Shown here piece by piece: positions 23,316-59,592 of a stretch of DNA of 64,000 nucleotides; position 1 is the stretch's first letter, and the number at the start of each line of letters is the position of its first letter. Under the pieces are notes generated by a model. The model was not told where the DNA came from. It saw nothing but the letters and a program-made list of their open reading frames with translations, and did not search any database. Source of the DNA: Deltaproteobacteria bacterium. GTDB lineage: Bacteria; Desulfobacterota; Syntrophia; Syntrophales; JACQWR01. Made by a program: the position numbers and the translations under genes. The stretch is taken from positions 132,216-196,215 of the forward strand of contig JACQWR010000011.1 of assembly GCA_016209105.1 (NCBI GenBank). Direction: 5' to 3'.

Positions 23316-23369
23316 AAACTTCTTCCTCCAATCCGTTAACCGCTCCCCATTGTTAGGAACGGCAAGAAA

Positions 23370-23452: not shown

Positions 23453-23461
23453 CGGTTCTTC

Positions 23462-28902: not shown

Positions 28903-28911
28903 TGTCTCCTC

Positions 28912-33873: not shown

Positions 33874-33992
33874 TTGAAACTCTCCTCGGCAGACCGTGGA
33901 GGATCCTCGATTCTTAAGGAATAGTAATTTTAAGATTCGCCCGCCTACCCCAAAGCCAAGCTCAAGGGGGAATGCGCTCGCTGCCGAATCGA
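33874..33992. repeat. Intergenic repeat family A, diverged copy
   Basis: ttgaaactctcctcggcagaccgtggaggatcctcgattcttaaggaat...ccccaaagccaagctcaagggggaatgcgctcgctgccgaatc. Confidence 0.65.
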
Positions 33993-34668: not shown

Positions 34669-34857
34669 TTAAAGATTCCCGCAGCAAGCGTTCACTTCCT
34701 TACCCCAAAACCAAGCTCAAGGGGGTGCGCTCGCTGCTGAATTGAAGCCCTCCGCAGCACACTGCGGAGGGTCTCCGATTTCCAAGGAACATTATTACTA
34801 TCATTCGCTCGCTTACCCCGCGGCTTGCCGCGGGGTAAGCGCTCGCTGACGAATTCA
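34669..34857. repeat. Intergenic repeat family A, tandem: a partial copy followed by a full copy
   Basis: The first unit runs 34669 to about 34746. The second unit, ttgaagccctccgcagcacactgcggagg...cgcttaccccgcggcttgccgcggggtaagcgctcgctgacgaattca, follows directly. Confidence 0.7.
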
Positions 34858-39557: not shown

Positions 39558-39671
39558 ATTCGCTCGCTTGGCATTCCCCGTAGCTTGCTCAAGGGGTAAG
39601 CGAGTGAATGCTGAACAGTATTGTTCCTTAAGAATCGAAGATTCGCCGCAGCAAGCTGCGGAGAGCTTCAA
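39555..39671. repeat. Intergenic repeat family A, full copy in inverted orientation
   Basis: tgaattcgctcgcttggcattccccgtagcttgctcaaggggtaagcgag...ccttaagaatcgaag...ccgcagcaagctgcggagagcttcaa. Starts on the stop codon of the small ORF. Confidence 0.7.
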
Positions 39672-39967: not shown

Positions 39968-40075
39968 TTGAAGTTTTTCGCAGTTTACTGTAAAGAATCT
40001 CCGATCCCAACGTAATAGCGCCACGAAGTATTCGCTTGCTTGCACTGCAACTGCGGGGAATGCGCTCACCGCCGC
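39968..40075. repeat. Intergenic repeat family A, diverged direct-orientation copy
   Basis: ttgaagtttttcgcag...aagaatctccgatcccaa...attcgcttgcttgcactgcaactgcggggaatgcgctcaccgcc. Confidence 0.55.
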
Positions 40076-40133
40076 ATCCTCGCACGAACGGGATCAGCCG
40101 AACAATCATAAATATGACAAGGAGGGACATGTT

Positions 40134-44551: not shown

Positions 44552-45235
44552 TTACTTTGAAAAGACCTTAATACTTGCCCTCGCATTGAGTTGCCGGAAC
44601 CACTCTTCACGGCTTAAGCCCTGCTGTGCCGCGCCCTTTTCGACAAGCTTGTTTATCAATGTTTCATTTTCAATGCGTTTCTCAAGATTAGCCATACTCA
44701 TGGCGTGGTTTTTTAAAAAAGCCTCAAAATCCTTGTCGGACAGGTTCATGCCCTTCTTTATAGTATCTATGCGGTCCTGAATATCTTTTTTAGAAACAGT
44801 GATATTTTCCCGTTTCGCTTCAGTCAAAAGCACCTTCTCCTGGATCAGGGCACTCAGAACCTGACGCCTGATGGCCTCCTGCATTTTTTTTCCTTCGGGA
44901 GAGGAGGCGTCAGCGTGTCCACCCCCGCTCTGGGCATAAATCTTGGTGTAAATTTCCACTTTCTGTTCCACCTCTTTCCAAGGGATTTTCTCACCATTAA
45001 CAACCGCCGCCACGCCTCGCCCCACAAAAGGATTGGGGATAACTCCCGTAAACAGCATCAGAGCGGCCCCACCCAGCAACACCAGGAGTATCACCAGAAC
45101 GCCGAATAGTTTGCTTCCGCCCTTCTTATCCCCGGTTTGCACCTCTCCGGTTTCCAGTTTCTTGCCACAGGCACCGCACAGAGTTTCTCCCCCTTCAAGC
45201 TGGGCGTCGCAATGAGGACATTTCAAGATTTCCAT
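44552..45235 (-). CDS. Zinc-ribbon / TM / SurA-N-terminal-like chaperone domain protein
   Basis: N-terminal CPHC...CGAC ribbon, one TM helix, then a periplasmic helical domain resembling the SurA/PpiD N-terminal chaperone domain. Confidence 0.6.
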   Translation of the reverse strand: MEILKCPHCDAQLEGGETLCGACGKKLETGEVQTGDKKGGSKLFGVLVILLVLLGGAALMLFTGVIPNPFVGRGVAAVVNGEKIPWKEVEQKVEIYTKIYAQSGGGHADASSPEGKKMQEAIRRQVLSALIQEKVLLTEAKRENITVSKKDIQDRIDTIKKGMNLSDKDFEAFLKNHAMSMANLEKRIENETLINKLVEKGAAQQGLSREEWFRQLNARASIKVFSK

Positions 45236-45505: not shown

Positions 45506-47287
45506 TCAGCGCTTCTGCGTTATCGTATCCACCAGCGCCGGCTGGCCGGCCTTTACCCGCGCAATGGCCCGCTTGAGCGCCGCCTTGACATCTTTCCCCT
45601 GGTCGATTGGGCCTTCGGCGTACCACCCCATGGATCGGGCAAGCCCGGCAAAATCAGGATCGGGATCGCAGAGATCCATGCCGATGTGGGCGCGATTCAC
45701 GGGCGTCCCCCGCAGTTTCGCCATCCGGATCTGATGGTGCCAGTCGTTGTAGTAGGCGCGGTTATTATACATGACAATCAGCATGGGGATCTTGTGTTTC
45801 GCCGCCACCCAGAGCGCGCCGGCATCGAACATCAGGTCGCCGTCGGGCTGCATATCCACCACCAGCCGGCCCTTGTCCCGGTTCGCCAGGGCCACGCCGA
45901 GGGCAATCCCGATCTGGGTGGACGTGCCCAGCGACTTGCCCGGATGGCGGTAGGGCTTGTCGAAATCCCAGAGCTTGCGCGTCCAGTCCTCAAGCGTACC
46001 CGCGGTCAACACCCAGTCTTCATCCTTGATGACATCCCAGACCTCGCTCGCCAGACGGGGAAGGGTTATGGGGCTTGCGTTCCAGTTTTCCTTCGCCTCT
46101 CTGGCCCACTTCGCCCGGAGGGCCTCATGTTTCTTTTTGGTCGCTTCAAACCGCTTCTTTACCACGGGTTGCAGGCGGGGATTTTTCGCCAGCAGGCCGC
46201 GGCATAATTTGGTCAGTGCCGGAATGGCCGTGGCGGTGTCCGCCAGGATACGCAGATCGACGTGGTGCAGGCGCTGGTAATCCATGGCCCAACTGCTGAT
46301 CTCCAGGTCGCCGAAGCCGATATCTATCCATTTACATCCCGCCGGGGCCAGGCTGGTCACCGTGCGGGTCGTACTCACCAGTTCCGTGGTGGGCTTCTCC
46401 CAGTCCCGCGTATCGAGGCACAGGATCAGGTCCGCGTCCCGGAAGACATCTTTTGACATGCTCAGGTTGAGCGGATGACACCCGGGGAAATTCAAGCGGC
46501 TGTTCACATCGAAGACCGGAGCAGCCACCGTCTCGGCAAGCTTCACCAAGGGCTCATAGCCTATTGGCTGGCGCCCGGCAAACTCTGCGAGGATCACGGG
46601 ATGCTTCGCCCTGACCAGCATCTCGGCCGCCTGCGCCAGGGCGTCGGGATCGGCAGCCATAGGAGTCGGCACCTTCATCGCGTGGGCGGGCGGCAGCGCG
46701 ACGGCATGGTTGAGGGGGGCTTCCTGGAGCCATGCATCGTAGCACATGTAGATCGGCCCCTGGGGTTCGGTCATCATGACCCCGTAGGCGCGGGCGAAGG
46801 ATTCGGGCACCCCATCAATGACGGTTGGCTGGTAGTCCCACTTCGTGAAATTCCGGAATGCCTCTCCCTGGGCATTGGCCGTATGCGTCCAGTCTATGCG
46901 GGGACGTCGCTTGGTCTCGTCCATGGGGCCGGTGGCGCCGACGATGAAGACGGGCGCCCGGTCAATGTAGGCATAGTAAACCGCCATGGTCGCATGCAGC
47001 ATGCCCACCAGGTTGTGGAGGATCGCCACCATGGGTTTCCCCGATGCCTTGGCGTAACCGTGGGCGATCTCCACGGCAATTTCCTCATGCTGGCAGAGCA
47101 TCAGGTAGGGAAAATTCTGGCCGTAATTGACGATTGAATCGTGCAGCCCCCGGTAGCTCGCACCCGGATTCATGGACGCGTAGGGGAGATCGTACCGGTG
47201 CAGCATGTCCACGATCACGTCCGATGCCCACCGTTGCTTCGTAGGAACAACCTTCGATTTTTTTGCAACATTTTTCTTTGCTGCCAT
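45506..47287 (-). CDS. Thiamine-diphosphate-dependent enzyme (acetolactate synthase / benzoylformate decarboxylase / diketone hydrolase superfamily)
   Basis: Three-domain ThDP enzyme with a GDG...N(N) ThDP-binding motif (DMQPDGDLMFDAGALWVAAKHKIPMLIVMYNN). Preferred start MAAKKN at 47287 behind GAAGGAGGGAG. Confidence 0.85.
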   Translation of the reverse strand: MAAKKNVAKKSKVVPTKQRWASDVIVDMLHRYDLPYASMNPGASYRGLHDSIVNYGQNFPYLMLCQHEEIAVEIAHGYAKASGKPMVAILHNLVGMLHATMAVYYAYIDRAPVFIVGATGPMDETKRRPRIDWTHTANAQGEAFRNFTKWDYQPTVIDGVPESFARAYGVMMTEPQGPIYMCYDAWLQEAPLNHAVALPPAHAMKVPTPMAADPDALAQAAEMLVRAKHPVILAEFAGRQPIGYEPLVKLAETVAAPVFDVNSRLNFPGCHPLNLSMSKDVFRDADLILCLDTRDWEKPTTELVSTTRTVTSLAPAGCKWIDIGFGDLEISSWAMDYQRLHHVDLRILADTATAIPALTKLCRGLLAKNPRLQPVVKKRFEATKKKHEALRAKWAREAKENWNASPITLPRLASEVWDVIKDEDWVLTAGTLEDWTRKLWDFDKPYRHPGKSLGTSTQIGIALGVALANRDKGRLVVDMQPDGDLMFDAGALWVAAKHKIPMLIVMYNNRAYYNDWHHQIRMAKLRGTPVNRAHIGMDLCDPDPDFAGLARSMGWYAEGPIDQGKDVKAALKRAIARVKAGQPALVDTITQKR

Positions 47288-47393
47288 AACTCCCTCCTTC
47301 AATAATGCCGTTGTAGGTATGCTGCGGTTCAGAGATCGGGGAACACCGGAAAACAGGTAAAGAGGAAACAATCCCCCTGCCGTATTTCCGGAA

Positions 47394-48107
47394 TTATCTG
47401 CGGATTTTTTTCAGAAAGGCAAGCGCCTCGTCCACGAAAACGACATCGGCGTACTTGCAGTTCATGTCGAACAGATTCACCTTGTGGCTCAGCCAGTTCC
47501 GGTCGAATACACATTCCTCGACCACAGTCACGTTAAAACCATGCATGAAACCCTCGATGACGCTGGCCCGGACGCAACCGCTGGTGGAATTGCCGCAGAT
47601 GATCAGCTGATTGACATCCATCTGGGTGAGGTGCGCAATAAGCGCGGTGCCGAAAAAGGCGCTGGCCCGCGTCTTTCTTATTACCAGTTCATCCTTTTCC
47701 GGGGTGAGTTCCGGGAAAAAAGCATGATCCCAGGCAGGATTCGCATCACGCCGTACCCGCTTCGTAGAAGAAAGGCTGCTTCTCGCCGATTGGCTTACGT
47801 CATCGCGGGTCGTATGGATAACGGGGATACCGGCCGCACGCGCCGCCGCCATCAAGCGTTTCGTGGGTTTGAGCGCCTCCCAGGCCGCCAGCCCGCAACT
47901 GCTGGGGAACCGCTTCATAGACTTGAGCACCGCCTCCGGCCGGTCGCCGAAGACCGCGTTGTAGTTGTCGATGCACAGCAGGGCCGGCCGCCTGCGGAAT
48001 CCCCTGCGGGTTTCATAATTGCCGGCTATCGCCCGGATTTCCTTGTCTATGACGTCTTCCCAGGCATGTTTCCTCTTTCCCTTTTTTACCACCGTTTTGC
48101 CCGACAT
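47394..48107 (-). CDS. Isochorismatase-family (cysteine) hydrolase, second copy
   Basis: LLCIDNYN (Asp), IRKTRASAF (Lys), ICGNSTSGCVRAS (Cys). Preferred start at 48107 behind AAAGGGGGG. Confidence 0.8.
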   Translation of the reverse strand: MSGKTVVKKGKRKHAWEDVIDKEIRAIAGNYETRRGFRRRPALLCIDNYNAVFGDRPEAVLKSMKRFPSSCGLAAWEALKPTKRLMAAARAAGIPVIHTTRDDVSQSARSSLSSTKRVRRDANPAWDHAFFPELTPEKDELVIRKTRASAFFGTALIAHLTQMDVNQLIICGNSTSGCVRASVIEGFMHGFNVTVVEECVFDRNWLSHKVNLFDMNCKYADVVFVDEALAFLKKIRR

Positions 48108-48117
48108 CGTCCCCCCT

Positions 48118-49116
48118 TTAATCGTCATTCTTATGGGAACAGGCCACCAGGGGAGCGGCAAACAGGTCATCCACCGCCATTTTCCGGTCGATGAGTCCCT
48201 GATCGAGCGAGTATTCCAGAAACCGCTCCAGGTTCGCCCTGTTCCTTTTTATTCCCAGCGGCCAGGGGTCATTCCCCAGCACGGCGCCCTCTTCTTCAAA
48301 ATAATGGCGACCCCAGGCCAACTGCGACCAGTTGGGATCGTCGTAGTAGCCCCGGTATATCTTCTTCGCCGCTTCGAAAAGCGAAAGAAGCGCCTTGGCC
48401 ACCCAGGGTTCACGGTCCACCAGCTCCTGTTTCAAAGCCAGGATGTGCATGATGGGATAATAACCGTTCTTCCGGTAATACCTGGTCTCTTCCGCCCTGG
48501 CATCAGGGAAGAGGCGCCGGACGCGGGCTCCCGCCTCCAGAATAGCTTTGGGAGGGTGGGGCATGATGAGGGCGTCGATCTCGCCGTCAAGGAGCATCTG
48601 CCCGATTTTCTTGCCTTCGCCTTTCCTTTCCAGGGAAACGCCCTCTTTAAGTTTGAAAGAGACGTTCTCTTCGCGGTTCACGCACCATTTGATTTTTTCC
48701 CAGGGAACGCCGTATTCCCACTTCATATCCCCCTTGGCCAGGACGGAAAGGGTGGTCTGGAACGAGCTCAATCCCACCTTCCTGCCGATCAGATCCGCGG
48801 GCGACGTTATTGTTGCATCGGCCAAGACCCAGGCCTGGGACTGGCTGAACAGTCTCCGGGGAAATACGGGAATGGCCGTCAGGGGCATACCCCGGTTTTT
48901 TGCCATGATATAGGAAGAGAGGGAAACCTCGGCAGCGTCAAATTCCCTCTCGCGGATCATCCGCTCATGCCTGCTTACGCCGTCCTTGAGCGGGGCAGAT
49001 TGCCCGACCTGCACGGTATGGAGTTCGAGCTCTTCCGGTACCGGCAGCGTCCCGTCAAAAAAGGGAACGTGCCGGTCGTAGTTCGACAACGCCAAGATGA
49101 TCTTCAATTTCCCCAT
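48118..49116 (-). CDS. PhtD-like (4,5-dihydroxyphthalate decarboxylase family, periplasmic-binding-protein-like fold) protein
   Basis: By recall it matches the family pattern: N-terminal ..SNYDR..P..DG, E.SLSSY, IPVFPRR.F, GEIDALI.P, PIMH, DPWP.G...N...LE..L.Y...QGL. Assignment is from memory, not a search. Confidence 0.6.
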   Translation of the reverse strand: MGKLKIILALSNYDRHVPFFDGTLPVPEELELHTVQVGQSAPLKDGVSRHERMIREREFDAAEVSLSSYIMAKNRGMPLTAIPVFPRRLFSQSQAWVLADATITSPADLIGRKVGLSSFQTTLSVLAKGDMKWEYGVPWEKIKWCVNREENVSFKLKEGVSLERKGEGKKIGQMLLDGEIDALIMPHPPKAILEAGARVRRLFPDARAEETRYYRKNGYYPIMHILALKQELVDREPWVAKALLSLFEAAKKIYRGYYDDPNWSQLAWGRHYFEEEGAVLGNDPWPLGIKRNRANLERFLEYSLDQGLIDRKMAVDDLFAAPLVACSHKNDD

Positions 49117-49182
49117 CAGAGAGGACCCTTAGTGTTCGGTGCGCTGCAAACGCAAAACCCTGTAAAAAGCGGCTCCGGCAAT

Positions 49183-49213
49183 TTTACGGGCGGGGATGAT
49201 CCCCGCCCGTAAA
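49183..49213. other. Near-perfect 31-bp palindrome/hairpin between tctB and the PhtD-like gene
   Basis: tttacgggcggggat g atccccgcccgtaaa. No clear U-tract. Confidence 0.35.
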
Positions 49214-49240
49214 GCACCGCTTCTAGAGAATGTATCTCCC

Positions 49241-49774
49241 CTACTCCCCCGTCGCCAGAAGTCTGAAGATCAGGGCATCGTACAGCGAAATCTTCGCAAT
49301 CACCACAAAAACCAGGTAAATCGTCGCCCATAATCCGAACGCGGTAGACACGGACGCCACCCAGCCGTCATCCTGGCTGCGCATAAATATAACGGTGAAA
49401 ACGGGAATGGTGATCAAAAATCCGAAGAGGTAAACCATCAGAACATAAAGCATCACCCACCCGGCAGCCTTCAGCAGAGCGATGGCCTCCTCGCGATCCG
49501 TTCTCTTCACCTTCTTTTCTTCCATCACCTCCACATGGATCTTATCCATGGTCTTTTGAAACATCTCGTCTTCTATCGAAATAACCTTCTTCTTCTTTTT
49601 CCCCCGTAAAACGGAAACAAGCTGAATGGAAGCCATGATGATACAGGGGAAGGCGATCACCAACGGCATGAGCCGCGCCTTGGTATTGTACTGGTAGGCC
49701 CCGATGATCACTGCCAGAAAAAAACAAATCAAAACCGAGCCGAAAAAAATTTCCATTTTATCTTTCGTCTTCAT
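49241..49774 (-). CDS. tctB: Tripartite tricarboxylate transporter small membrane subunit TctB, with an unusually long charged loop
   Basis: Four TM segments. 4-nt overlap with tctA. Lys/Glu-rich insert (RGKKKKKVISIEDEMFQKTMDKIHVEVMEEKKVKRTDREE). Confidence 0.7.
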   Translation of the reverse strand: MKTKDKMEIFFGSVLICFFLAVIIGAYQYNTKARLMPLVIAFPCIIMASIQLVSVLRGKKKKKVISIEDEMFQKTMDKIHVEVMEEKKVKRTDREEAIALLKAAGWVMLYVLMVYLFGFLITIPVFTVIFMRSQDDGWVASVSTAFGLWATIYLVFVVIAKISLYDALIFRLLATGE

Positions 49775-51270
49775 GCTGCACCTCCCGTCTGAGCCGCTTC
49801 TCTCTGCAGTCTTCTCGTTCGCCTCATCTGGAAGAATATCGTTACGACAATAATCGAGAACAGCAGCAGGGTGAGGGGGCGAAAGAGGAATTTAAGCCCG
49901 AAGAGGTTCATGGAAAGATGGAGATAGTTTTCCGTCAAGTCCCCCAGCACCGCGCCCAGCACAAAAGGCGCGCGGGGATATTTAAAAACTTTGAAGCCGT
50001 ATCCGAAGGCGCCGATAATGCAGGTGGCGATAATATCCCCGAAGTTGTTGGTGGCGAGAAACGCGCCGATAAAAGCGAAAACGAAAATGAACGGCACGAT
50101 CATCGAGACCTTGACAAAGGTAAGTTTGGCCAGTGGCATGACAAAGAGGAGGCACAGGATGACCCCGACGACATTGGCAAGGGCCAGAACCCAGACCATG
50201 CTGAAGACGACGTCGAGATGTTTGGTGAGCATCTCCTGCCCCGGCACGATCCCGATGATCATGAAGGCGCCGAGCAGAATGGCCATCGCTCCGGACGAGG
50301 GAACGCCGAAACACACCGTCGGAATAAGCCCGCCCCCTTCCTTGGAGTTATTGGCGCTCTCCGGGGCCAGGACGCCCTCTACCGCCCCCTTGCCGAATCG
50401 GGATGGATCTTTGGCGGTCTGCACGGCATGGCCGTAGCAGATAAATGCGGACGCTTCGCCGCCCAGTCCCGGGACCATGCCGATCATGCTGCCGATGACG
50501 CTGCAACGCAGCGTCAGGTTCCAATGGATGAAGGTATCCTTGATGCCCTGCCAAACCCCTGAGCCCGCGACCTGGTCTGCCTTGGTATGGGCAATGGAGC
50601 CGCCTTCCCTAATCATCGTTATTATTTCGGGAATGGCGAAGATGCCGATAGTGATATTCACGATATTCAAGCCGTCAAACAGATAGAGCTGATTGAAGGC
50701 AAAACGGACAACGCCGGTCTGGGGATCCATGCCGACGAAAGCCAGGGTCATGCCGACACCGCCGGCGACCAGGCCCTTCGTGAGGGAGCCGCCGCTCATC
50801 AGGGAGATGAAGGTGATGCCGACAAGCGTCATCATGAAAAATTCCGGCGGGCCGAAGGCCAGAACGACCGGCCTCACCACGGGAATGGTGAGGGCCATGA
50901 AGACCGCACCCACGACCCCGCCGAAACCGGAGGAGGCAAGCGCGGCGCCCAGCGCCCTTCCCGCCTCCCCCTTCTGCGCCATGGGATAGCCGTCAATAAC
51001 GGTTGCCGCCGCAGGACCATCGGGGGTATTGAAAAGAATTGCAGGAACGGGACTCCCCGTATGGACCACCGCATGCATGCCCAAAAGAAAGGCAAAGGCC
51101 ACGGCAGGCTCCATCCCGAAGCAAAAGGGTATCATTATGGCCAGCCCGACCTTTCCGCCGACCCCCGGAAGAATGCCGAGAATGAGGCCGATGGGGATGG
51201 TCAGCGCCAGAATCCCGAACACCTTCCAGTTCAGTATCAGTAATAAACCGCCATATAAAGCTTCTAACAT
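49771..51270 (-). CDS. tctA: Tripartite tricarboxylate transporter large permease TctA
   Basis: 499-aa polytopic permease with typical TctA sequence (GILPGVGG, GVPSSGAMAILLGA). Confidence 0.9.
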   Translation of the reverse strand: MLEALYGGLLLILNWKVFGILALTIPIGLILGILPGVGGKVGLAIMIPFCFGMEPAVAFAFLLGMHAVVHTGSPVPAILFNTPDGPAAATVIDGYPMAQKGEAGRALGAALASSGFGGVVGAVFMALTIPVVRPVVLAFGPPEFFMMTLVGITFISLMSGGSLTKGLVAGGVGMTLAFVGMDPQTGVVRFAFNQLYLFDGLNIVNITIGIFAIPEIITMIREGGSIAHTKADQVAGSGVWQGIKDTFIHWNLTLRCSVIGSMIGMVPGLGGEASAFICYGHAVQTAKDPSRFGKGAVEGVLAPESANNSKEGGGLIPTVCFGVPSSGAMAILLGAFMIIGIVPGQEMLTKHLDVVFSMVWVLALANVVGVILCLLFVMPLAKLTFVKVSMIVPFIFVFAFIGAFLATNNFGDIIATCIIGAFGYGFKVFKYPRAPFVLGAVLGDLTENYLHLSMNLFGLKFLFRPLTLLLFSIIVVTIFFQMRRTRRLQREAAQTGGAA

Positions 51271-51333
51271 AAATATTCACCTCCCTTTCTCCGTCTGATC
51301 TTGTATCGGGATCACCGATACAAGGATCAAACA

Positions 51334-51789
51334 TCAAATCTTTCCGACCCGTGAATAATCTCGAAAATAAAATAATAAGTCCGTGTCTTTCATAGGAGGG
51401 CTCCGCGCTCCCTGAGGCGTTTTTTCCCGATGGGGCCCTTCCATCAGCGGCAGGAGCGCCTTTCCCGCGTTGAATTCAAAACGACTGACCTCCGCAACCC
51501 TTGATATTCCCGAGAAGATGCACTGAGCGGACAGACGCCTTGCATGGACCTTGGTCTTCCTGAAGCCCGAGGTGACGGCAAACAGCACCCTCTTGGCAAC
51601 GGAGGTACGAAAAAGGTGCGTTCCTTCTTCCCGGACCATCCCGACAGGACAATGCTCCCGCCCCGCTCCTCCGGACACAGCGGTCCCTATGAAAGAGGAA
51701 TTTGCGGCATCCGCTAAGAGATTTGGTAAAACTGCCGCGATGGCAAGCAGGAGCAAAACCAACGATATCCGAGCACTAGGGAAACGCAT
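51334..51789 (-). CDS. Hypothetical secreted protein
   Basis: ORF with a signal-peptide-like N-terminus (ISLVLLLLAIAAVLPNLLADA) and a GGGAGAA RBS. No family recognised, and the coding status is uncertain. Confidence 0.35.
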   Translation of the reverse strand: MRFPSARISLVLLLLAIAAVLPNLLADAANSSFIGTAVSGGAGREHCPVGMVREEGTHLFRTSVAKRVLFAVTSGFRKTKVHARRLSAQCIFSGISRVAEVSRFEFNAGKALLPLMEGPHREKTPQGARSPPMKDTDLLFYFRDYSRVGKI

Positions 51790-51893
51790 TTCTCATTTCT
51801 CCCGAAGGGGATCAAAACAGCATACTCGTGAAGCTTTCCCCCGCTTGTTTTTGCAAGACGGAGGGCCGGCTATCCCTTAAGCAGGATCGCCAA

Positions 51894-52448
51894 TCACTTC
51901 CCCTGGTAACCCGGGGCGTTTTCCACCTGTTCCCACCAGTCAAACCCCAACGCTTTCACCAGGCGGCTTGTTGCCGTCACAAAACGGGCCGGATTGGCCG
52001 GACCGGCGTTGAAATGCTGATGGGTGGTATACGGCGGGATATACACAAAATCCCCTTCCTCCCACTCGTACCTCTTGGGCTCCTTCTCCCAATCCCAATG
52101 ATACTTAACATCGAGCGTGAAGGAAGCGTCCCAGTGCAGATCGTAGCCCTTGCCCTCCAGGACGTAAAAAAGCTCTTCCGCCATGTGGCGGTGTTTCCCC
52201 GAACTGCTTCCCGGCGCTATCTCCTGCATGTACATGTCGAGACAGCATTCCACCGTATCCGTCTCTTCGTTCACCAAATGCTTGATCCGGCCCTGCGGCG
52301 AGTTTTCCCAGGGCATTTCCGCCGGGCTCACGGAACGGGCTTTCTTATCATAGTCTTCGCGAAACTTTTTCGACCGCTCCAGCATCCGCCGGTAGTAATC
52401 CGTCTGCAGGGTTCCCTGGGCGGCTACAATTTTTTCTTCGTACGGCAT
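51894..52448 (-). CDS. Monocupin protein, same family as the bicupin halves
   Basis: Canonical cupin motif 1 GKHRHMAEELFYVLEGKG (HxH...E) and motif 2 YIPPYTTHQHFN. Confidence 0.7.
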   Translation of the reverse strand: MPYEEKIVAAQGTLQTDYYRRMLERSKKFREDYDKKARSVSPAEMPWENSPQGRIKHLVNEETDTVECCLDMYMQEIAPGSSSGKHRHMAEELFYVLEGKGYDLHWDASFTLDVKYHWDWEKEPKRYEWEEGDFVYIPPYTTHQHFNAGPANPARFVTATSRLVKALGFDWWEQVENAPGYQGK

Positions 52449-52469
52449 AATAAACCTCCTTGCGGTAAA

Positions 52470-53009
52470 CTATGGTTCTGGATGAAAATGCTCAAACCCG
52501 GGCTTCGCTTCCTTCGGCGGATATTCGACCGTCCTCTGGAACACCAGATGGAAAAAGAGGAACGTGGGCTTAGCCTTGAAGATAACGTAGCGCGCCGGTT
52601 TATCGGGCTTGTCGTTAAAGTGCTGATGGACGCACATATTTTCCACGATACAGACGTCTCCGGACTTCCAGGGATACTTTACTCCATCGTGCACGTCGTA
52701 TCCCTCCCCTTCCAGGATATAGAACACGGCGCTGTTCATATGCCCATGCCTCTGGCCGAAGCTGCCGGGCGCAAGCACGTCAATATGGGCCTCGACGGCC
52801 TGGGTCACCATCGTCCTCTGGGGATTCACGACATTCTTGCCGAATTTCGTCGGCCCTCCCTTCCAGTTCATCTCCTTGCTCTTGTATACCCGGGGTTGTT
52901 TGAGGAGATTTTGGTATACCTCCCCATACTTCCCGATCACTGCCCGGACAAACGTCCGGTCCTTCTGCCAACGGTCCCACTTTTGGTCAGTTTCTTCTTC
53001 TGGTTTCAT
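52470..53009 (-). CDS. Monocupin protein, partner of 51894..52448
   Basis: Motif 1 GQRHGHMNSAVFYILEGEG (HxH, acidic ligand position not conserved) and motif 2 VENMCVHQHFN. Confidence 0.7.
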   Translation of the reverse strand: MKPEEETDQKWDRWQKDRTFVRAVIGKYGEVYQNLLKQPRVYKSKEMNWKGGPTKFGKNVVNPQRTMVTQAVEAHIDVLAPGSFGQRHGHMNSAVFYILEGEGYDVHDGVKYPWKSGDVCIVENMCVHQHFNDKPDKPARYVIFKAKPTFLFFHLVFQRTVEYPPKEAKPGFEHFHPEP

Positions 53010-53034
53010 GGCAACCTCCTCTTGTTTAATTCGG

Positions 53035-53550
53035 TTATATCTCTATACCAAAACCGTTCGTTATTATCTCAGCCATCAAGCCGGCCAAGGGGGGAAGGAT
53101 CAAGCAGGAAATAATCCTGATTTTTACGAAACGCACACCCATCAGGGGAATCTCATACGCAAGCACCCGATGAACGGCAAAGACCGACCAGGCGGTAACG
53201 AAAGAAATCAAAGCCGGAACCGCCGCGCCGGTTTTTAAAAAAACATAGACAATGGGGAAACAGATAACCGGTCCGCCGGGAGTGAGTCCTCCCACCAAGG
53301 AACCGATCACGATGCCCCTCAGTCCCGCATCCTTCCCCAGCCACTCAGCCACCAGCTCCGTAGGAACAATCTGCGCGAAGAAGCCGGAAACCAGAACGGC
53401 CAAAACAATTTTAGGGACGGTACTAAAGGCCTGTTTCCAGGCAATCTGCAACCCCTGACGGAAGCGTCCATCATGACGTAAATAGGCCATGACGCCCAGT
53501 ATCAGCGCGAGGATCCATATGACCAGCGACGCATAATCCAGAACGTTCAC
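53035..53550 (-). CDS. Half-size permease (DUF318/ArsP-like predicted permease family), second half-gene
   Basis: TM-rich with the GGLTPGGPVICFP motif. GTG start overlaps the upstream TGA (AGGAGGTGA), with the RBS inside the upstream gene. Confidence 0.7.
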   Translation of the reverse strand: MNVLDYASLVIWILALILGVMAYLRHDGRFRQGLQIAWKQAFSTVPKIVLAVLVSGFFAQIVPTELVAEWLGKDAGLRGIVIGSLVGGLTPGGPVICFPIVYVFLKTGAAVPALISFVTAWSVFAVHRVLAYEIPLMGVRFVKIRIISCLILPPLAGLMAEIITNGFGIEI

Positions 53551-54110
53551 CTCCTCTCTGTTAATTTTCCGTCCAGATAAGTTACGAGCTTCTGAGCAAG
53601 GATTCCGGCCAACAAGGGAAAGAAGAGCGAGACGGACACCCGCAATACGGTAAAATTGACGCCCATGAGCGGCAGTTCCCAAATCAGGATACGCTGCATG
53701 CCCATGAGTTCCCAGGAAATCAGGTACGCAATCAGGGTGCTGATCGCCGCGCCCATGGAGGAAAGTGCTGAAATCAGGGGGAAAGAAACGATCGGGCCGC
53801 CCGGCGTAAGCATTCCGGCGAAAGTGGCTATCACGAGCCCCCTGAACCCGGCCCGCTCTCCGATCAATTGCATTACCACTTCCCGGGGTAAGAGAACCTG
53901 GACGAATCCGGCCAGAATAATTGCTCCCGCAATTTTGGGAAGTATCTGCATCATCATGACGAGCGAATCGTCTAATCCCTTATCAAAAACAGCCTCCCCC
54001 CTGCTATAACAGATAGCGGCAGTAATAATCACCAGTGCGGCAAAAATAACGAGGGAAGGGTCAATAACAGGCTTCCTTCTTTTTTCTGCCGGTTGCGCCA
54101 TGCTGATCAA
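53547..54110 (-). CDS. Half-size permease (DUF318/ArsP-like predicted permease family), first half-gene
   Basis: TM-rich with the GMLTPGGPIVSFP motif. Paralogous to the downstream half. The start is ambiguous: TTG at 54110 or ATG at 54101. Confidence 0.7.
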   Translation of the reverse strand: MISMAQPAEKRRKPVIDPSLVIFAALVIITAAICYSRGEAVFDKGLDDSLVMMMQILPKIAGAIILAGFVQVLLPREVVMQLIGERAGFRGLVIATFAGMLTPGGPIVSFPLISALSSMGAAISTLIAYLISWELMGMQRILIWELPLMGVNFTVLRVSVSLFFPLLAGILAQKLVTYLDGKLTERR

Positions 54111-54169
54111 ACCATCCTGTCACATGAGGGATGAAAACCGCCATTGCCCTGTTTCAGGCCATAGGAGGA

Positions 54170-54288
54170 TTGAAGCTTTCCATGAACACGCTGCGTAAGA
54201 ATCTCCGATTCTTAAGGAACGAGAACGTTCGGCATTCGCTCGCTTACCGCGCGGCAAGCCGCGGGGAATGCGCTCGCTGCCGAATTGA
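54170..54288. repeat. Intergenic repeat family A, full-length copy
   Basis: ttgaagctttcc...aagaatctccgattcttaaggaac...attcgctcgcttaccgcgcggcaagccgcggggaatgcgctcgctgccgaattga. Confidence 0.75.
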
Positions 54289-54391
54289 CACCCTTTGCCA
54301 TGTCCAGCTTCCGGAAAAGAAGAAATAGCGGCGGTAGGACAAGGCCGCTATTTCTTCTTCAGTATGTTTTCACTGTTTGAGAGCCGCTCTC

Positions 54392-55855
54392 TTACTTGCT
54401 CCCGAAGCCTTTCAGCAAATACCCGTATTTTTCCCGGGCCTTCCTTGCCCGTGCGGGGCTCGGCATGTTGACCAGGGGGAACTGATCGCGCCAGTCATAG
54501 GGACGCGTTGCGTCAATGATGGCACGGGAGTTGACCAGTTTTCCCTTATGCTTGTCATCGGGGTGGATCCGGGGATCAAGCGCCGTTGACCAGGTATTGT
54601 GGATAATATCAATGGATGTCGCCGGATCGGAACGAGTTACCATGGCCCACATCAGCTCATCAAGATTGGAGACATCAATATCGTCGTCCACGACGATGAC
54701 GTACTTGCCGAGATAGGCGCCCACGTGACACTGCGAGGCTACGTGTCCCACCTGGGTGGCGTGGCCGCCGTAGCGCTGATTGATGGCGATGGCGAGGAGC
54801 AGCCTCGAACTGCCGACCTCATGGGCCCAGACGGACTTGATGCCGACAATTCCCGCCGCCTCCATCTGCTGCCTCAAGAGCGCCGAGCGCATGACGGCCC
54901 GGTAGCGCGCAATCTCATCGGGCGGACGGTTCGGGGGACAACCCAGGATAATGGGATCGTTCCGGTGATAAACCGCCTTCACATCCAGGAACGGCTCTTC
55001 CCGCACATCACTGGCATAATAACCCGTCCATTCGCCGAAGGGGCCTTCCTTCCGCTTCTTCTTGGGGTCAACGAAGCCCTCGAATACGATCTCGGCATTG
55101 GCGGGAATGGGAAGCCCCGTCACCTTTCCTTTAATAACCTGGTATGGTTTTCCCCGTAAGCCTCCGGCGAAATCGTATTCGCTGATCCCGTAGGGAACTT
55201 CATTGCACGCCATCAGGTAGAGGAGCGGATCGCCGCCCACCACAATAGCCAGCGGCATGGGTTTGCCGCTCTTAAAGTACTTGTCCCGGTGGACGCGGCC
55301 GTGTTTTCCCGGCGAGATATAGAAGGCGACGGTTTTCTTGTCATGCACCATAACGCGGTAGGTGCCGAGGTTTACCCAGCCCTCATCGGGATCCTGGGTT
55401 ATGTCGTAACTCCCCGTACCGATGTAGCGTCCCCCGTCGTTCTCATGCCAAAAAGGAGTCGGAAAAGAGAGAACATTAATATCCTTGCCCATTTTGACAT
55501 TTTCCGTTACCGGCCCTTTTTCCACGACTTTGTAGGGGATAGGTTTCGATTCCTGAAACGCCTTGAGAAAGGCGTTGGAAAGTTCGACGCGGGAAAGGTC
55601 CGTGGGGAAGCCAAGCGTCATGTTCATCCGCTTTGCACCGAAGAAATTGACCAGCACCCGGTGTCCCTTCGGGTACCCCGGAATCTTGTCAAACAGTGCG
55701 GCGGGAGCGGGATCGGAGGCGTGAAGAAGTTCCGTCGCCATGCCGATATCTTCCTGCCAGCTCGCCTTTTCCACATCCTTCACCTCGCCCAGTTTGCGGG
55801 CCTGATCCAGCCAGCCTCGCAAATCATCGTAAAGAAATTTCTGTTTCATCTGCAT
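54392..55855 (-). CDS. UbiD-family (prFMN-dependent) reversible decarboxylase, second copy
   Basis: 487 aa, collinear with 5141..6571 (DGGRYIGTG, DPDEGWVNLGTYR, EGPFGEWTGYY). Confidence 0.9.
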   Translation of the reverse strand: MQMKQKFLYDDLRGWLDQARKLGEVKDVEKASWQEDIGMATELLHASDPAPAALFDKIPGYPKGHRVLVNFFGAKRMNMTLGFPTDLSRVELSNAFLKAFQESKPIPYKVVEKGPVTENVKMGKDINVLSFPTPFWHENDGGRYIGTGSYDITQDPDEGWVNLGTYRVMVHDKKTVAFYISPGKHGRVHRDKYFKSGKPMPLAIVVGGDPLLYLMACNEVPYGISEYDFAGGLRGKPYQVIKGKVTGLPIPANAEIVFEGFVDPKKKRKEGPFGEWTGYYASDVREEPFLDVKAVYHRNDPIILGCPPNRPPDEIARYRAVMRSALLRQQMEAAGIVGIKSVWAHEVGSSRLLLAIAINQRYGGHATQVGHVASQCHVGAYLGKYVIVVDDDIDVSNLDELMWAMVTRSDPATSIDIIHNTWSTALDPRIHPDDKHKGKLVNSRAIIDATRPYDWRDQFPLVNMPSPARARKAREKYGYLLKGFGSK

Positions 55856-55905
55856 TCTCCTTCGCTATTGAATTTTGTTTCCAATTTTGTTTCCTCTTAC
55901 GCTTG

Positions 55906-56607
55906 TCAATCCCAGAAAATACCCCGCTTTCGTCCTTTTTCCATGAAGTATGCCCAGCTTTTCTGAATGCTTGATGGCTTGAAGGTGCTGGCCGCCGCCC
56001 TTTTCACTTCCTCTTCGGGAAGGGCAATCGGTTCTCCCACAGCGGATGCTTCCACCACCAGCCGGGCGTTTTCCTCCAGGTGCAGAGCGGCTAAAAAAAC
56101 AGCTTCCACATATGCCTCGGCTACCACCGCCCCATGGCCTTTCATCACCACCGCCCTCCCCATACCGAGGATATCGGCCATGCGGTTCGCCTGCGTGAAG
56201 TTCACGATCTTTTCCGAATCGGGATAGAGGGGCACCGCCTGCCCGAAGATACTGCCGTGGTGACAAACCGTAACCAGTTCCCTGCCCACGATGCTCGGGA
56301 TGATCGCATAGTGCGGGTGCATATGAATAACGCTGTTCACATCCGCCCGTTTCTGATACACAGCGGCATGGATCGGTGTTTCCTCAGGTGTTTTTCCCGT
56401 ACCCGTTACATTCTTCCCGCTTAAATCAACCTCGATCATATCATCGGGCCGCACTTCGCTTCTTGCCGTGCTGCCCGGATGAATAAAAAAGGTCTTTCCA
56501 CCGGGGACGCGACCGGAAATGTGACCGGAGAAATCAATCAACCCCACCATCTCGAGCATACGGCAGGCACGGGCCAGCGTGCCTTTCAGTTCCTTTTCCT
56601 GTTCCAT
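55906..56607 (-). CDS. Class II aldolase/adducin-family protein
   Basis: Metal-binding His pattern (IHAAVY..., VIHMHPHYA) in a 233-aa protein typical of the family. Confidence 0.8.
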   Translation of the reverse strand: MEQEKELKGTLARACRMLEMVGLIDFSGHISGRVPGGKTFFIHPGSTARSEVRPDDMIEVDLSGKNVTGTGKTPEETPIHAAVYQKRADVNSVIHMHPHYAIIPSIVGRELVTVCHHGSIFGQAVPLYPDSEKIVNFTQANRMADILGMGRAVVMKGHGAVVAEAYVEAVFLAALHLEENARLVVEASAVGEPIALPEEEVKRAAASTFKPSSIQKSWAYFMEKGRKRGIFWD

Positions 56608-57832: not shown

Positions 57833-58158
57833 CCGGCCTCCTTCGTTCCTGCGCTGTTCCTCGTTGTTCACCGCCGCCGACCGCAGGATGGCGGCAGCAC
57901 AACGGCGATCTTCCCGCCGTCAAAAAGACTCGAACTGCGGGACACGTTTTCGGTCAAGAAAAGTTTTTTGCACTTTTTTTCATTTTTTGTAAAAAAAATA
58001 TTGACATAGATGTGCAAGAAGTGTAAAGCGAAAAAAAGTGCGGCAGCGAACGTAACTGCTCGTTCCCGCTTAAGGAACCAGGCACGACGGCACCCGAGAA
58101 AAAACGGCTTGGCACAGCCTGTAAAATGAGCGTAGTAAAAATCGCAAGGAGGCGCAAG

Positions 58159-59472
58159 ATGGAAAGTGAATCTCTTTTCAATGAGGAGGTGGAACCTCCA
58201 GGTAGTTTGACCGGTATTATCGGTCCTGAACATCAAACCCCCAATAGTTTCCGCCCCTATAAGAAGCCTTCCCATACGTCCCTGTATCTGGCCAAGCCGG
58301 ACCGCGGCGTATTTCCTTTCAAAGACAGCCCGAGGGCAAAAGCCTTCCGTAAACGTTTTTTCCCGGATATCTCCCGCATCGAGTGGTACGACTGGCACTG
58401 GCAGTTCCGCAACCGAATCCGCGATGTTGATATCCTGTCCCAGATGATTGAACTTTCGGAAAATGAGCACAACGCCCTTGTTTACCACTCAGGGAAAATC
58501 CCCCTATCCATAACCCCCTACTATGCGAGTCTGCTGACCGGCAATGACTGTTCCCGGCCGTTGCGCCGCACGGTAGTGCCTGTCGTTGATGAGTGTTTCC
58601 GCATGGAAAACGAGGAAGACGATCCCCTCGGGGAAGAGCACGACAGCCCCGTGCCGGGGATCGTGCACCGTTATCCGGACCGGGTCCTTTTCCTGGTAAC
58701 CGGCCTCTGTTCAACCTACTGCCGTTACTGCACTCGCTCACGCATGGTAGGACGGGACGGCGAGCAGGGGTTTAGCTCCGACCAGTGGGAACAGGCGCTG
58801 GAATATATCTCCGACCGGCCGGAAATACGGGATGTCCTTCTTTCAGGCGGTGATCCGCTCACCCTTTCCGACGAGCAATTGGAATGGTTGTTGTTTCGAT
58901 TAAGAAAAATACCCCACGTGGAACTTTTGCGCATCGGCACCAAGGCGCCCGTGGTAATGCCCCAGCGTATTACCCCTGCGCTTACGCACATGCTCAAGCG
59001 CTATCATCCCCTCTGGATGAGCATTCACGTGACCCATCCGGACGAGTTGACACCGGAAATGAGTCAGGCCTGTATGCGTCTGGCAGACGCAGGCATTCCC
59101 CTCGGCAGCCAGACCGTCTTGCTTACGGGGATCAACGATGACGTGGAGACCATGAAACAACTCATGCAGGGATTGCTCCGGATCCGGGTAAAACCATACT
59201 ATCTCTATCAGTGCGACCCCATCCCCGGTTCGTCGCACTTCAGAACCTCGGTGTCTAAGGGACTGGAAATCATCCAGGGACTGCGCGGGTACACGACCGG
59301 CTATGCGGTTCCCACCTATGTTATAGATGCGCCGGGCGGCGGCGGCAAAATCCCTCTCCTCCCGGAATATTTGGTGGGGCGGGACGGCGATGATCTCGTC
59401 CTCAGAAACTATGAGGGACAGATCTATCGCTATCCCGACCGTGAGACGCCGACAAACAGCGATGTGCACTGA
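58159..59472 (+). CDS. kamA: Lysine 2,3-aminomutase (radical SAM, KamA/AblA type)
   Basis: CSTYCRYCTRS radical-SAM cluster and KamA-family sequence throughout (SGGDPL, YLYQCD, PTYVIDAPGGGGK). Preferred start is ATG at 58159 behind AAGGAGG. Confidence 0.85.
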   Translation: MESESLFNEEVEPPGSLTGIIGPEHQTPNSFRPYKKPSHTSLYLAKPDRGVFPFKDSPRAKAFRKRFFPDISRIEWYDWHWQFRNRIRDVDILSQMIELSENEHNALVYHSGKIPLSITPYYASLLTGNDCSRPLRRTVVPVVDECFRMENEEDDPLGEEHDSPVPGIVHRYPDRVLFLVTGLCSTYCRYCTRSRMVGRDGEQGFSSDQWEQALEYISDRPEIRDVLLSGGDPLTLSDEQLEWLLFRLRKIPHVELLRIGTKAPVVMPQRITPALTHMLKRYHPLWMSIHVTHPDELTPEMSQACMRLADAGIPLGSQTVLLTGINDDVETMKQLMQGLLRIRVKPYYLYQCDPIPGSSHFRTSVSKGLEIIQGLRGYTTGYAVPTYVIDAPGGGGKIPLLPEYLVGRDGDDLVLRNYEGQIYRYPDRETPTNSDVH

Positions 59473-59592
59473 CCAGGAAGTCTGGTTTTCCGGCAGGTAA
59501 GTGAGTCCTCCGCGCAGAGGCGGGACTTGAGAGATTTGTTTCCGGATCGGAGAGGGCGGAAAGAACCGCAGGACAAGGGGGAAGAAAACTTT

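Follow-up and report, generated by a model that had tools for sequence, protein, structure and literature searches.

Gene content of the array

We analyzed a 64-kb stretch of contig JACQWR010000011.1 (assembly GCA_016209105.1, Deltaproteobacteria bacterium), referred to here as the window, and focused on a minus-strand gene array at positions 45506-56607 that an earlier note, made from the sequence alone, had described as a second UbiD locus. Read along its own strand, the array encodes a class II aldolase/adducin-fold protein, a UbiD-family decarboxylase of the prenylated flavin mononucleotide (prFMN)-dependent type, two half-size permeases, two monocupins, the TctA and TctB subunits of a tripartite tricarboxylate transporter (TTT), a PhtD-family protein, a cysteine hydrolase of the isochorismatase family, and a thiamine diphosphate (ThDP)-dependent enzyme (Table 1). 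The genes lie where the earlier note placed them and in the order it gave, and 11 of the 12 that it named pass profile or structure-sequence tests. All 11 belong to known superfamilies, with curated family thresholds reached only by TctA, TctB, and the generic UbiD model; the 593-residue start of the ThDP enzyme matches public gene calls. Profile scans found no Rieske, flavin-oxygenase, or reductase domains in the locus, in agreement with the earlier claim that no oxygenase or reductase component is present. We tentatively read the array as a genuine catabolic cluster that, with the first UbiD locus of the same window, serves the oxygen-independent breakdown of a carboxylated aromatic or N-heteroaromatic acid.

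The twelfth member of the earlier list, a 151-residue 'secreted hypothetical' protein, did not hold up. Its open reading frame (ORF) lies in a 623-bp gap, has no Pfam or NCBIfam match, and is missing from the syntenic locus L004 (see below), where cupin B and tctA are 13 nt apart; on sequence comparison it is probably not a conserved gene. The gap has no DNA match beyond contigs of the same genome, and Rfam has no match within it (E ≤ 1) or, at gathering thresholds, anywhere in the window. A decayed tctC was considered as the content of this gap and ruled out, as no similarity was found. Scans for sigma-70 promoters and for terminators gave no more than shuffled expectation, and the sigma-54 consensus had 58 matches versus 64 expected, none of them convincing upstream of the locus.

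Table 1. Features of the window, with the array first
Feature	Position	Strand	Match or remark
Class II aldolase/adducin-fold protein, 233 aa	55906-56607	-	Pfam Aldolase_II, 2.1e-32
UbiD-family (prFMN) decarboxylase, PhdA-like	54392-55855	-	Pfam UbiD_N, UbiD, UbiD_C; TIGR00148
REP-like hairpin repeat in UbiD/permease gap	54170-54290		One of nine copies in the window
Half-size permease A, 184 aa, ArsP_1/DUF318 family	53547-54101	-	Pfam ArsP_1, 2.8e-9
Half-size permease B, 171 aa	53035-53550	-	Pfam ArsP_1, 9.7e-9
Monocupin A, 179 aa, His-rich metal site	52470-53009	-	Pfam Cupin_2, 2.7e-10
Monocupin B, 184 aa	51894-52448	-	Pfam Cupin_2, 3.1e-14
623-bp gap with 151-aa 'secreted hypothetical' ORF (51334-51789)	51271-51893		Probably no conserved gene
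TctA, large membrane subunit of TTT	49771-51270	-	Pfam TctA, 7e-121
TctB, small membrane subunit of TTT	49241-49774	-	Pfam TctB, 2.1e-10
PhtD-family (NMT1/THI5-fold) protein	48118-49116	-	PDB 9jp7, 6.2e-43
Isochorismatase-family cysteine amidohydrolase, 237 aa	47394-48107	-	Pfam Isochorismatase, 2.2e-32
ThDP-dependent enzyme, 593 aa	45506-47287	-	Pfam TPP_enzyme_N, M, C
Zinc-ribbon and SurA_N-like protein	44552-45235	-	Directly downstream of the ThDP gene
First UbiD locus	~4.4-24.6 kb
First-locus Cys hydrolase and UbiD block	4409-6571	-	UbiD at 5141-6571
Bicupin (405 aa), EutA-like ATPase (513 aa), bicupin (385 aa)	15931-20082	-	One bicupin at 18925-20082
Acd and carboxyltransferase (591 aa)	21540-24613	-	Carboxyltransferase resembles glutaconyl-CoA decarboxylase alpha subunit
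Molybdopterin oxidoreductase	454-3540	+	In-frame TGA at 1012-1014, motif HQARI-U-HSATV
4Fe-4S subunit	3541-4296		Next to the oxidoreductase gene
MtrB/PioB-type outer-membrane porin and multihaem cytochrome	26737-29925	-	Paired CXXCH motifs in the cytochrome
KamA-family radical SAM aminomutase and two ATP-grasp genes	58126-61583	+	D-Ala-D-Ala-ligase-like ATP-grasp genes
Other REP-like copies	18814-18925, 21418-21522, 23369-23444, 25917-25997, 33900-33992, 34802-34855, 39571-39644, 40030-40077		All intergenic

Conservation of gene order

A synteny check in related genomes, which the earlier note had proposed, came out in favor of the array. All eleven genes are present in the same order, at 57 to 88% amino acid identity, at L004 (our numbers with the prefix L denote comparison loci) and at L094, which is apparently the same lineage as L004 in another groundwater data set. 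The flanks differ, with an AsmA-like gene upstream and toxin-antitoxin and transposase genes downstream in L004, and fpg upstream and the SurA_N-like gene downstream in the window. Because the same eleven genes keep the same order within unrelated flanks, the array is more than a chance assembly, and this conserved synteny argues that it is a functional unit. A gene 50% identical to this SurA_N-like gene occupies the corresponding place in L007, L008, and L095; in L004 it does not.

Parts of the array recur elsewhere. L007, L008, and L095 carry tctA, tctB, and the genes for the PhtD-like protein, the hydrolase, and the ThDP enzyme (67 to 83% identity) together with a distant aldolase-II gene, and lack UbiD, cupins, and permeases. 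L174 has the PhtD-like (75%), hydrolase (87%), and ThDP (88%) genes, with genes for a sensor kinase and a sigma-54 response regulator after them, and its contig ends upstream; these three genes thus stand side by side in the window, in L004, in L007, and in L174, and in all of these but L174 tctAB lies directly upstream. Two other loci, L090 and L091, combine TctCAB, an ornithine-cyclodeaminase/mu-crystallin gene, and a PhtD-like gene (67 to 68%), both without hydrolase and ThDP genes. L090 adds the cupin pair, an 80%-identical UbiD, three further UbiDs, a tungsten-type aldehyde:ferredoxin oxidoreductase, and an Amidohydro_2 protein, and lacks the aldolase-fold gene; L091 has four UbiDs, an aldehyde:ferredoxin oxidoreductase, and an arylmalonate-decarboxylase-family gene, and no cupin pair. 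The PhtD-like gene directly follows tctB in L004, L007, L090, and L091, and in L006 an 81%-identical copy lies beside a mu-crystallin gene and dissimilatory sulfite reductase genes. We note that L090 (1-16926) and L091 (466-19590) have the character of 'decarboxylase islands' in Thermodesulfobacteriota-type metagenome-assembled genomes (MAGs), with four UbiD genes each and a metallo-beta-lactamase-fold protein.

This patchwork could also be taken to mean that the array is a mosaic of independent modules (TTT/PhtD-like/hydrolase/ThDP, the cupin pair, and aldolase/UbiD/permease) that act on different substrates and became neighbors through shared ancestry or horizontal transfer. The modules do occur apart in L007, L090, and L176, the full array was seen in two lineages only, and its genes are separated at two points by 290 and 623 bp, with a generic REP-like element in one of these gaps. 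We nonetheless consider a mosaic unlikely, given that each pairwise link recurs on its own, namely ThDP with cupins in aerobes, cupins with UbiD and the PhtD-like gene in L090, and the PhtD-like gene with hydrolase and ThDP in L007 and L174; that the ThDP gene also has among its companions PhtD-family proteins from a different clade (43% identity to PhtD) and distantly related aldolase-II proteins; and that the full order is kept at 57 to 88% identity despite the different flanks.

Transport genes and candidate decarboxylases

TctA and TctB score 404 and 41 bits in Pfam and their genes overlap by 4 nt; TctA is 85% identical to its L004 counterpart and 69% to that of L007. Permeases A and B, whose genes likewise overlap by 4 nt, are 35% identical to each other, and each matches the first half of ArsP_1 (for A, profile positions 12-134 of 294). 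Permease A is called as a 184-residue gene in L001 and is 57% identical in L004, where permease B is 61% identical; B is presumed to be the heterodimer partner of A.

The UbiD protein scores 231, 100, and 27 bits with UbiD_N, UbiD, and UbiD_C and 291 bits with TIGR00148 (cutoff, 245). Among solved structures, 7abo/4ip2, which we take to be the pyrrole-2-carboxylate decarboxylase HudA/PA0254, match at 204 bits, the phenolic acid decarboxylase 7ae4 at 185 bits, and phthaloyl-CoA decarboxylase (8pmk/8oz5) at 65 bits. The closest solved relative by far is 7pda (E 3.6e-112; 379 bits over residues 8-471), which is PhdA, the decarboxylase of phenazine-1-carboxylic acid (PMC10850782). The catalytic residues are kept, with the Arg of GGRYIG and the Glu of FGEWTGY corresponding to PhdA R159 and E269. 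The protein is 88% identical to the UbiD of L004, 80% to those of L010 and L090, and 49% to the UbiD of the first locus in the window.

The PhtD-like assignment, whose failure the earlier note had listed among the outcomes that would refute its proposal, survived the profile search. The protein is homologous over its full length (residues 1-320; 31% identity; E 6e-43 by phmmer against the PDB) to 9jp7, a 4,5-dihydroxyphthalate decarboxylase. No signal peptide is visible, and from its sequence we presume it to be a cytoplasmic, cofactor-independent decarboxylase. It does not qualify as a PhtD ortholog, as the locus has no phthalate dioxygenase, reductase, or dihydrodiol dehydrogenase partners. 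A search of a literature library found no paper on PhtD structure or mechanism. A scan of GTDB species representatives anchored on this protein gave 80 loci. The wider subfamily (55 to 65% identity; Binatia, Syntrophobacteraceae, and others) is without array partners at 75 of these; L010 and L011 are the only ones to share more than one or two partners, and three others have an isolated TctA or ThDP-like match. The subfamily as a whole is therefore not tied to the pathway, and one of its members is located among Rieske dioxygenases. Judging from these neighborhoods, the PhtD-like gene is tightly tied to tctAB only in the closest clade, in which two add-on modules, UbiD with cupins and hydrolase with ThDP, alternate or combine.

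The aldolase-fold protein (Aldolase_II, 113 bits) stays below every NCBIfam cutoff; PhtC, a 3,4-dihydroxyphthalate decarboxylase, is its third-best model (81.9 bits; cutoff, 200) and its best-scoring aromatic-acid decarboxylase model. In the PDB it matches pyruvic oxime dioxygenase (8ix6, 2e-18) and the pyridine-dicarboxylate decarboxylase HMPDdc (2z7b, 6.5e-17) about equally well. It has the HxH...H metal motif, and its HMHPH and GHG segments align with both of these enzymes. A 79%-identical copy is present in L004. The protein is probably a metal-dependent decarboxylase or lyase, to judge from these motifs.

The cysteine hydrolase

The hydrolase scores 113 bits with Pfam Isochorismatase, and its best PDB matches, 3ot4/3uao (6.5e-28) and 4l07/4l08, are deposited as (putative) isochorismatase-family proteins; we take the former to be the maleamate amidohydrolase NicF and the latter to be Ami. 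N-carbamoylsarcosine amidase follows at 4e-24. The Asp-Lys-Cys triad is kept in the segments CIDNYN, IRKTRASAF, and TSGCVRAS, which align with 3ot4. To our knowledge, true isochorismatases (EntB, PhzD) lack the Cys. Since Asp, Lys, and Cys are all kept, the protein is best described as a cysteine amidohydrolase, and the isochorismatase-like label of the earlier note gives way to that of a NicF/CSHase-type amidase. It falls into no named equivalog (NicF, CSHase, RutB, BiuH, PncA), with a best NCBIfam score of 48 bits against a cutoff of 370.

The earlier note had also pointed to a recurring pairing of UbiD with an isochorismatase-family hydrolase, and this is not borne out for the locus. The hydrolase gene keeps company with those of the PhtD-like protein and the ThDP enzyme in four lineages, its product being 75 to 87% identical beside the ThDP gene in L004, L007, and L174, and the UbiD-rich L090 and L091 lack it. 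Similarity to the hydrolase of the first locus is limited to 28% identity over 75 residues. That second Cys hydrolase, which lies 3 nt from the first UbiD, is BiuH/RutB-like (100 bits, below cutoff) and belongs to a different subfamily.

These assignments bear on a specific form of the reading in the earlier note, an anaerobic pathway in which phthalate or hydroxyphthalate isomers or benzene tricarboxylates are broken down. The PhtD-family and PhtC-like assignments are in line with it, as are the decarboxylase-rich relatives L090 and L091 and the import of terephthalate by TTT systems in Comamonas. The known anaerobic route, however, uses phthaloyl-CoA decarboxylase, to which the locus UbiD scores 65 bits compared with 379 bits to PhdA; the PhtD-like protein is only 31% identical to PhtD; and the Cys amidase and the ornithine-cyclodeaminase/mu-crystallin genes of related loci would have no role with nitrogen-free phthalates. 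We therefore regard this route as very unlikely. Of the phthalate/gentisate framing, the PhtD, aldolase, and cupin families stand, but they are not specific, as the cupins are generic and the UbiD is PhdA-like.

A conserved ThDP enzyme family and its neighbors

The ThDP enzyme has all three domains of its superfamily (TPP_enzyme_N, M, and C at 63, 27, and 64 bits), with a PDGD...NN motif and the Glu at the cofactor-activating position visible in its sequence. It reaches no curated cutoff; the best model is PRK08327 (261 bits; cutoff, 456). The earlier note had suggested placing it relative to cyclohexane-1,2-dione hydrolase (CDH), IolD, and acetolactate synthase (ALS), and it is close to none of them: CDH matches at 64 bits over 130 residues, ALS models give 50 to 84 bits against cutoffs of 500 to 1000, and IolD is not in the best 25 of 49 families. 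Benzoylformate decarboxylase (BFDC; 4q9d, 2.7e-31) is the best PDB match, over the N-terminal half only. Homologs of the locus enzyme are 75 to 100% identical among the 120 matches listed, which include Burkholderiales such as Telluria beijingensis; a metagenome scan confirmed at least 532 stretches, with the best 80 loci at 71 to 85% identity, and an alignment of 27 sequences has a mean column identity of 82%. By these comparisons the enzyme belongs to a very conserved, uncharacterized family of its own.

We examined what accompanies this family in the best 80 loci of the scan minus two from close relatives, with denominators that count the loci having enough flanking DNA. ORFs were clustered with a filter on GC content at third codon positions (GC3); cluster 1 merged the ABC permease with the EutA-like ATPase, and EutA-like genes were therefore counted by tblastn. 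Homologs of cupins A and B lie within 6 kb downstream in 26 to 27 of 42 loci (24 to 25 of them on the same strand), a bicupin of about 372 residues, up to 80% identical to the product of window positions 18925-20082, is nearby in 22/42, and a EutA-like ATPase lies within 8 kb upstream in 27/36. PhtD-family genes (8/36) and aldolase-II genes (6/36) are less frequent. The typical order, mostly from soil, is an IclR regulator and then, all pointing the same way, an optional PhtD-family gene, the EutA-like ATPase, an ABC permease, an ABC ATPase, and the ThDP gene, followed by a 272-residue tartronate-semialdehyde-reductase-like dehydrogenase, cupins of about 185 and 204 residues, the bicupin, a porin, and binding proteins. 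Some loci also have a mu-crystallin gene, a major facilitator superfamily (MFS) transporter, or a phthalate-family Rieske oxygenase and reductase. The PhtD-family proteins of these operons form another clade, 43% identical to 9jp7 and 34 to 37% to the window protein. The operon as a whole (L092-L173) is stereotyped in its Fe(III)-type ABC transporter, NAD dehydrogenase, three cupins, and EutA-like ATPase. The core of ThDP enzyme and cupins is thus shared with aerobes, and the pathway is accordingly not restricted to anaerobes. A search of a literature library found no description or function for the ThDP-cupin-EutA-like module or for the combination of EutA, cupin, ThDP, UbiD, and TTT genes.

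In the aerobic versions, the presence of transporters for uptake, of IclR regulators, and of Rieske oxygenases of the phthalate family indicates that aromatic acids are catabolized. A biosynthetic role was set aside, since related loci encode transporters for uptake, regulators of the IclR and two-component types, and oxygenases. A further alternative is a nonaromatic substrate, such as an aliphatic or alicyclic polycarboxylate, a keto acid, or an amide (of citrate, sugar-acid, or aminopolycarboxylate type), for which the ThDP enzyme would be a keto-acid decarboxylase or carboligase, the cupins isomerases, and the aldolase-fold protein a true aldolase. TTT systems are classically importers of citrate and other tricarboxylates. 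Also pointing this way are the tartronate-semialdehyde-reductase-like NAD dehydrogenase that follows the aerobic ThDP gene, the Fe(III)-type ABC transporters and NicO that are common there, and the ThDP gene of L175, which keeps company with PrpD-family, 2-hydroxyacid dehydrogenase, HGD-D, and BKACE genes. Yet the UbiD belongs to an aromatic-acid clade (PhdA, PpcB, VdcC), aromatic or pyridine dicarboxylates are the substrates both of the sole characterized PhtD-family activity and of the decarboxylases most closely related to the aldolase-fold protein, and the aerobic operons include the Rieske oxygenases just mentioned, so that a nonaromatic substrate seems improbable to us.

Host and window context

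Exact copies of the locus proteins were found in groundwater metagenome assemblies and in an NCBI MAG labelled Deltaproteobacteria bacterium. The runs that carry the protein presumably come from the same Californian groundwater study as the nearby-accession run SRR12113421 (He et al. 2021). Several genes in the window bear on its physiology. Acd, a nondecarboxylating glutaryl-CoA dehydrogenase (Desulfococcus equivalog), scores 734 bits against a cutoff of 470 and lies beside a carboxyltransferase gene; the two together correspond to the glutaryl-CoA end route of obligately anaerobic aromatic degraders. The in-frame TGA of the molybdopterin oxidoreductase gene is read, from its sequence context, as a selenocysteine codon typical of formate-dehydrogenase-type enzymes. 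The MtrB/PioB-type porin gene adjoins that of the multihaem cytochrome, as in a conduit for extracellular electron transfer, and the window also encodes cytochrome c biogenesis proteins and three sigma-54 activators. The KamA-family protein scores 491 bits as lysine 2,3-aminomutase (cutoff, 525), and with the two ATP-grasp genes it may form a beta-amino-acid ligation system. Acd, the TGA-containing molybdenum oxidoreductase, the multihaem cytochromes with the MtrB/PioB porin, and KamA support an anaerobic lifestyle, which is well supported though not proven by these genes and agrees with the genomic context described in the earlier note.

The bicupin-EutA-bicupin block of the first UbiD locus sits between the Acd/carboxyltransferase genes and a group that comprises CoA ligase, CoA transferase, thiolase, and HMG-CoA-synthase-like genes, the first UbiD, and the second Cys hydrolase. 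Its two bicupins share 74% identity, have no solved homolog, and reach up to 80% identity with proteins whose genes neighbor the ThDP-family gene in soil metagenomes. A single pathway probably draws on both loci, the main argument being that they split between them a gene set that is contiguous elsewhere.

The window further contains nine copies of an REP-like (repetitive extragenic palindrome-like) repeat of ~75 to 115 bp, all intergenic, with a central hairpin (CCCCGCGGC..GCCGCGGGG) between conserved arms. The repeat has no Rfam match and folds no better than its shuffles (z-score, -1.1). It is a generic intergenic element and not specific to the locus.

The cupins and oxygen

Cupins A and B belong to the Cupin_2 family and are 28% identical to each other; they are paired in L004, L090, L093, and most ThDP loci. 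Resemblance to gentisate and 5-aminosalicylate dioxygenases is weak (gentisate dioxygenase 3bu7, 7.9e-11 for A and 9.8e-9 for B), and neither qualifies as a gentisate 1,2-dioxygenase, a bicupin of ~350 residues (TIGR02272), being monocupins of 179 and 184 residues that score 30 and 15 bits against a cutoff of 442. Both have a three-His metal site, represented in cupin A by H88, H90, H128, and H130 and in cupin B by the same HxH...HQH pattern. H75, H88, H90, H128, and H130 of cupin A are invariant in 36 homologs, and the canonical Glu position is variable. The AlphaFold model of cupin A has a mean predicted local distance difference test (pLDDT) score of 61, with 75 to 90 in the cupin core, and Foldseek against the PDB returns generic cupins only (among them a 180-residue monocupin dioxygenase, isomerases, and lyases) with no functional discrimination.

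These features leave room for a micro-oxic pathway, in which the cupins would be Fe(II) dioxygenases that cleave rings in the manner of the gentisate, salicylate, or 5-nitrosalicylate enzymes and the array a low-oxygen version of the Burkholderiales operon, used with traces of O2. The His-x-His...His site with a variable Glu position is as in three-His dioxygenases, the best matches by sequence, weak as they are, are gentisate and 5-aminosalicylate dioxygenases, the same-size monocupin dioxygenase 8ch4 is among the fold matches, and homologous cupin pairs occur in operons of aerobes with Rieske oxygenases and reductases. Set against this are the strict-anaerobe hallmarks of the host (Acd, the putative selenocysteine molybdenum enzyme, and the extracellular-electron-transfer cytochromes), the location of closely related cupin pairs next to several UbiDs and an aldehyde:ferredoxin oxidoreductase of the tungsten type, and the lack of a hydroxylating oxygenase to supply a dioxygenase substrate; moreover, neither fold nor sequence matches separate dioxygenases from isomerases and lyases. 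On balance we give a micro-oxic pathway only a small chance.

A proposed oxygen-independent pathway

We return to the reading of the locus as a catabolic cluster that, with the first UbiD locus, breaks down a carboxylated aromatic or N-heteroaromatic acid without oxygen, and put its probability at roughly 40%. A nonoxidative route for a carboxylated substrate imported by the TTT system, as already proposed in the earlier note, is the most economical reading of the gene set. In such a pathway, TctAB would import a di- or tricarboxylated acid with the help of a TctC encoded elsewhere. As many as three decarboxylases that differ in mechanism, namely the PhdA-like UbiD with its prFMN cofactor, the protein of the PhtD family, and the aldolase-fold protein, would strip this acid of its carboxyl groups without a need for oxygen. 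The two His-site cupins and the ThDP enzyme might then isomerize or open the electron-rich ring or its keto tautomer, the ThDP enzyme cleaving a C-C bond next to a carbonyl. The Cys amidohydrolase would split an amide or carbamoyl bond, with release of NH3 if the substrate has nitrogen. For activation and degradation, the products could pass to enzymes encoded in the first locus (CoA ligase, CoA transferase, thiolase, Acd, and a GcdA-like protein), and the two half-permeases may export a decarboxylated product. Family membership, intact motifs in UbiD, hydrolase, ThDP enzyme, and cupins, synteny, and the recurrent linkage to the ThDP gene in aerobes and anaerobes are observed; the substrate class, the order of steps, the ring-opening chemistry, a cupin activity independent of oxygen, and the connection to the CoA route are what we infer from them.

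Within this reading, the odds that the substrate contains nitrogen appear roughly even. The tilt toward nitrogen comes from the amidase relatives, which release ammonia, the UbiD relatives, which act on phenazine and pyrrole acids, the likeness of the aldolase-fold protein to a pyridine-dicarboxylate decarboxylase, and the mu-crystallin-type imine reductases in related loci.

Several observations weigh against the oxygen-independent reading of the locus. The 290- and 623-bp gaps break the array, which may consist of two or three transcription units. No tctC is present in the 64-kb window, and no remnant of it was detected in the 623-bp gap (tblastn with ten TctC sequences; best E, 0.076). Similarly, no UbiX/flavoprotein domain was found by Pfam among the scanned ORFs of the window, and ubiX may be located in another part of the genome. 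The three-His-type site kept in the cupins resembles that of ring-cleaving dioxygenases, and by sequence the cupins could depend on O2. The ThDP gene need not be committed to the pathway, since its homologs (83 to 84% identity) are found alone among housekeeping genes in L176 and in the setting described above in L175, and its pairing in aerobic operons with a tartronate-semialdehyde-reductase-like dehydrogenase would also fit aliphatic keto-acid chemistry.

A bolder proposal, which we hold to be rather doubtful, is that the ThDP enzyme, cupin pair, bicupin, and EutA-like ATPase form a widespread pathway core of aerobic soil bacteria and strict anaerobes that, combined in the anaerobes with three nonoxidative decarboxylases and a Cys amidase, would degrade polycarboxylated (hetero)aromatics (for example, pyridine, pyrrole, or benzene polycarboxylates) without oxygen through a new ThDP- or cupin-catalyzed ring opening. 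Should the catabolic reading set out above hold, the locus would represent an undescribed oxygen-independent degradation of carboxyl-rich (hetero)aromatic acids in groundwater and soil, and a first handle on an abundant, unannotated, and unusually conserved ThDP family that travels with cupins and a EutA-like ATPase. The PhtD-family, aldolase-fold, and UbiD decarboxylases would be of biocatalytic interest, because such reactions can run as reversible carboxylations. The present gain is a defined set of genes for expression and a short list of candidate substrate classes.

Comparison with known systems

With the aerobic o-phthalate system, the locus shares the PhtD and PhtC folds side by side and an aromatic-acid context; it differs in the 31% identity to PhtD, the 82 bits to PhtC against a cutoff of 200, the absence of dioxygenase, reductase, and dihydrodiol dehydrogenase, and the anaerobic host. 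The anaerobic phthalate pathway likewise uses a UbiD-family decarboxylase for O2-independent carboxyl removal and has its CoA ligase and CoA transferase mirrored in the companion locus. That pathway includes UbiX, whereas no ubiX is present in the window; moreover, the locus UbiD is distant from the phthaloyl-CoA decarboxylase Pcd and close to free-acid decarboxylases, and the PhtD-like protein, cupins, ThDP enzyme, and amidase have no counterpart there. PhdA shares the catalytic Glu269 and Arg159 equivalents with the locus UbiD, which no curated model makes its ortholog; PhdA acts on a monocarboxylate and is unlinked to TTT, cupin, or ThDP genes.

The locus hydrolase has the triad of NicF/Ami and N-carbamoylsarcosine amidase, with only the C-terminal 160 residues aligning well, NCBIfam scores far below cutoff, and the nicotinate and creatinine pathway genes of those systems absent near the locus. 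TctA and TctB are shared with TctABC and the terephthalate system TphC-TpiBA, without the TctC that the related L090 and L091 retain. The ThDP enzyme shares the three-domain architecture and the GD...NN motif of the ALS/BFDC superfamily (BFDC, CDH, IolD) and reaches none of its equivalog cutoffs. Decarboxylase-driven catabolism of aromatic acids is itself known; what sets this locus apart is a combination of genes that matches no aerobic phthalate, anaerobic phthaloyl-CoA, nicotinate, or inositol pathway.

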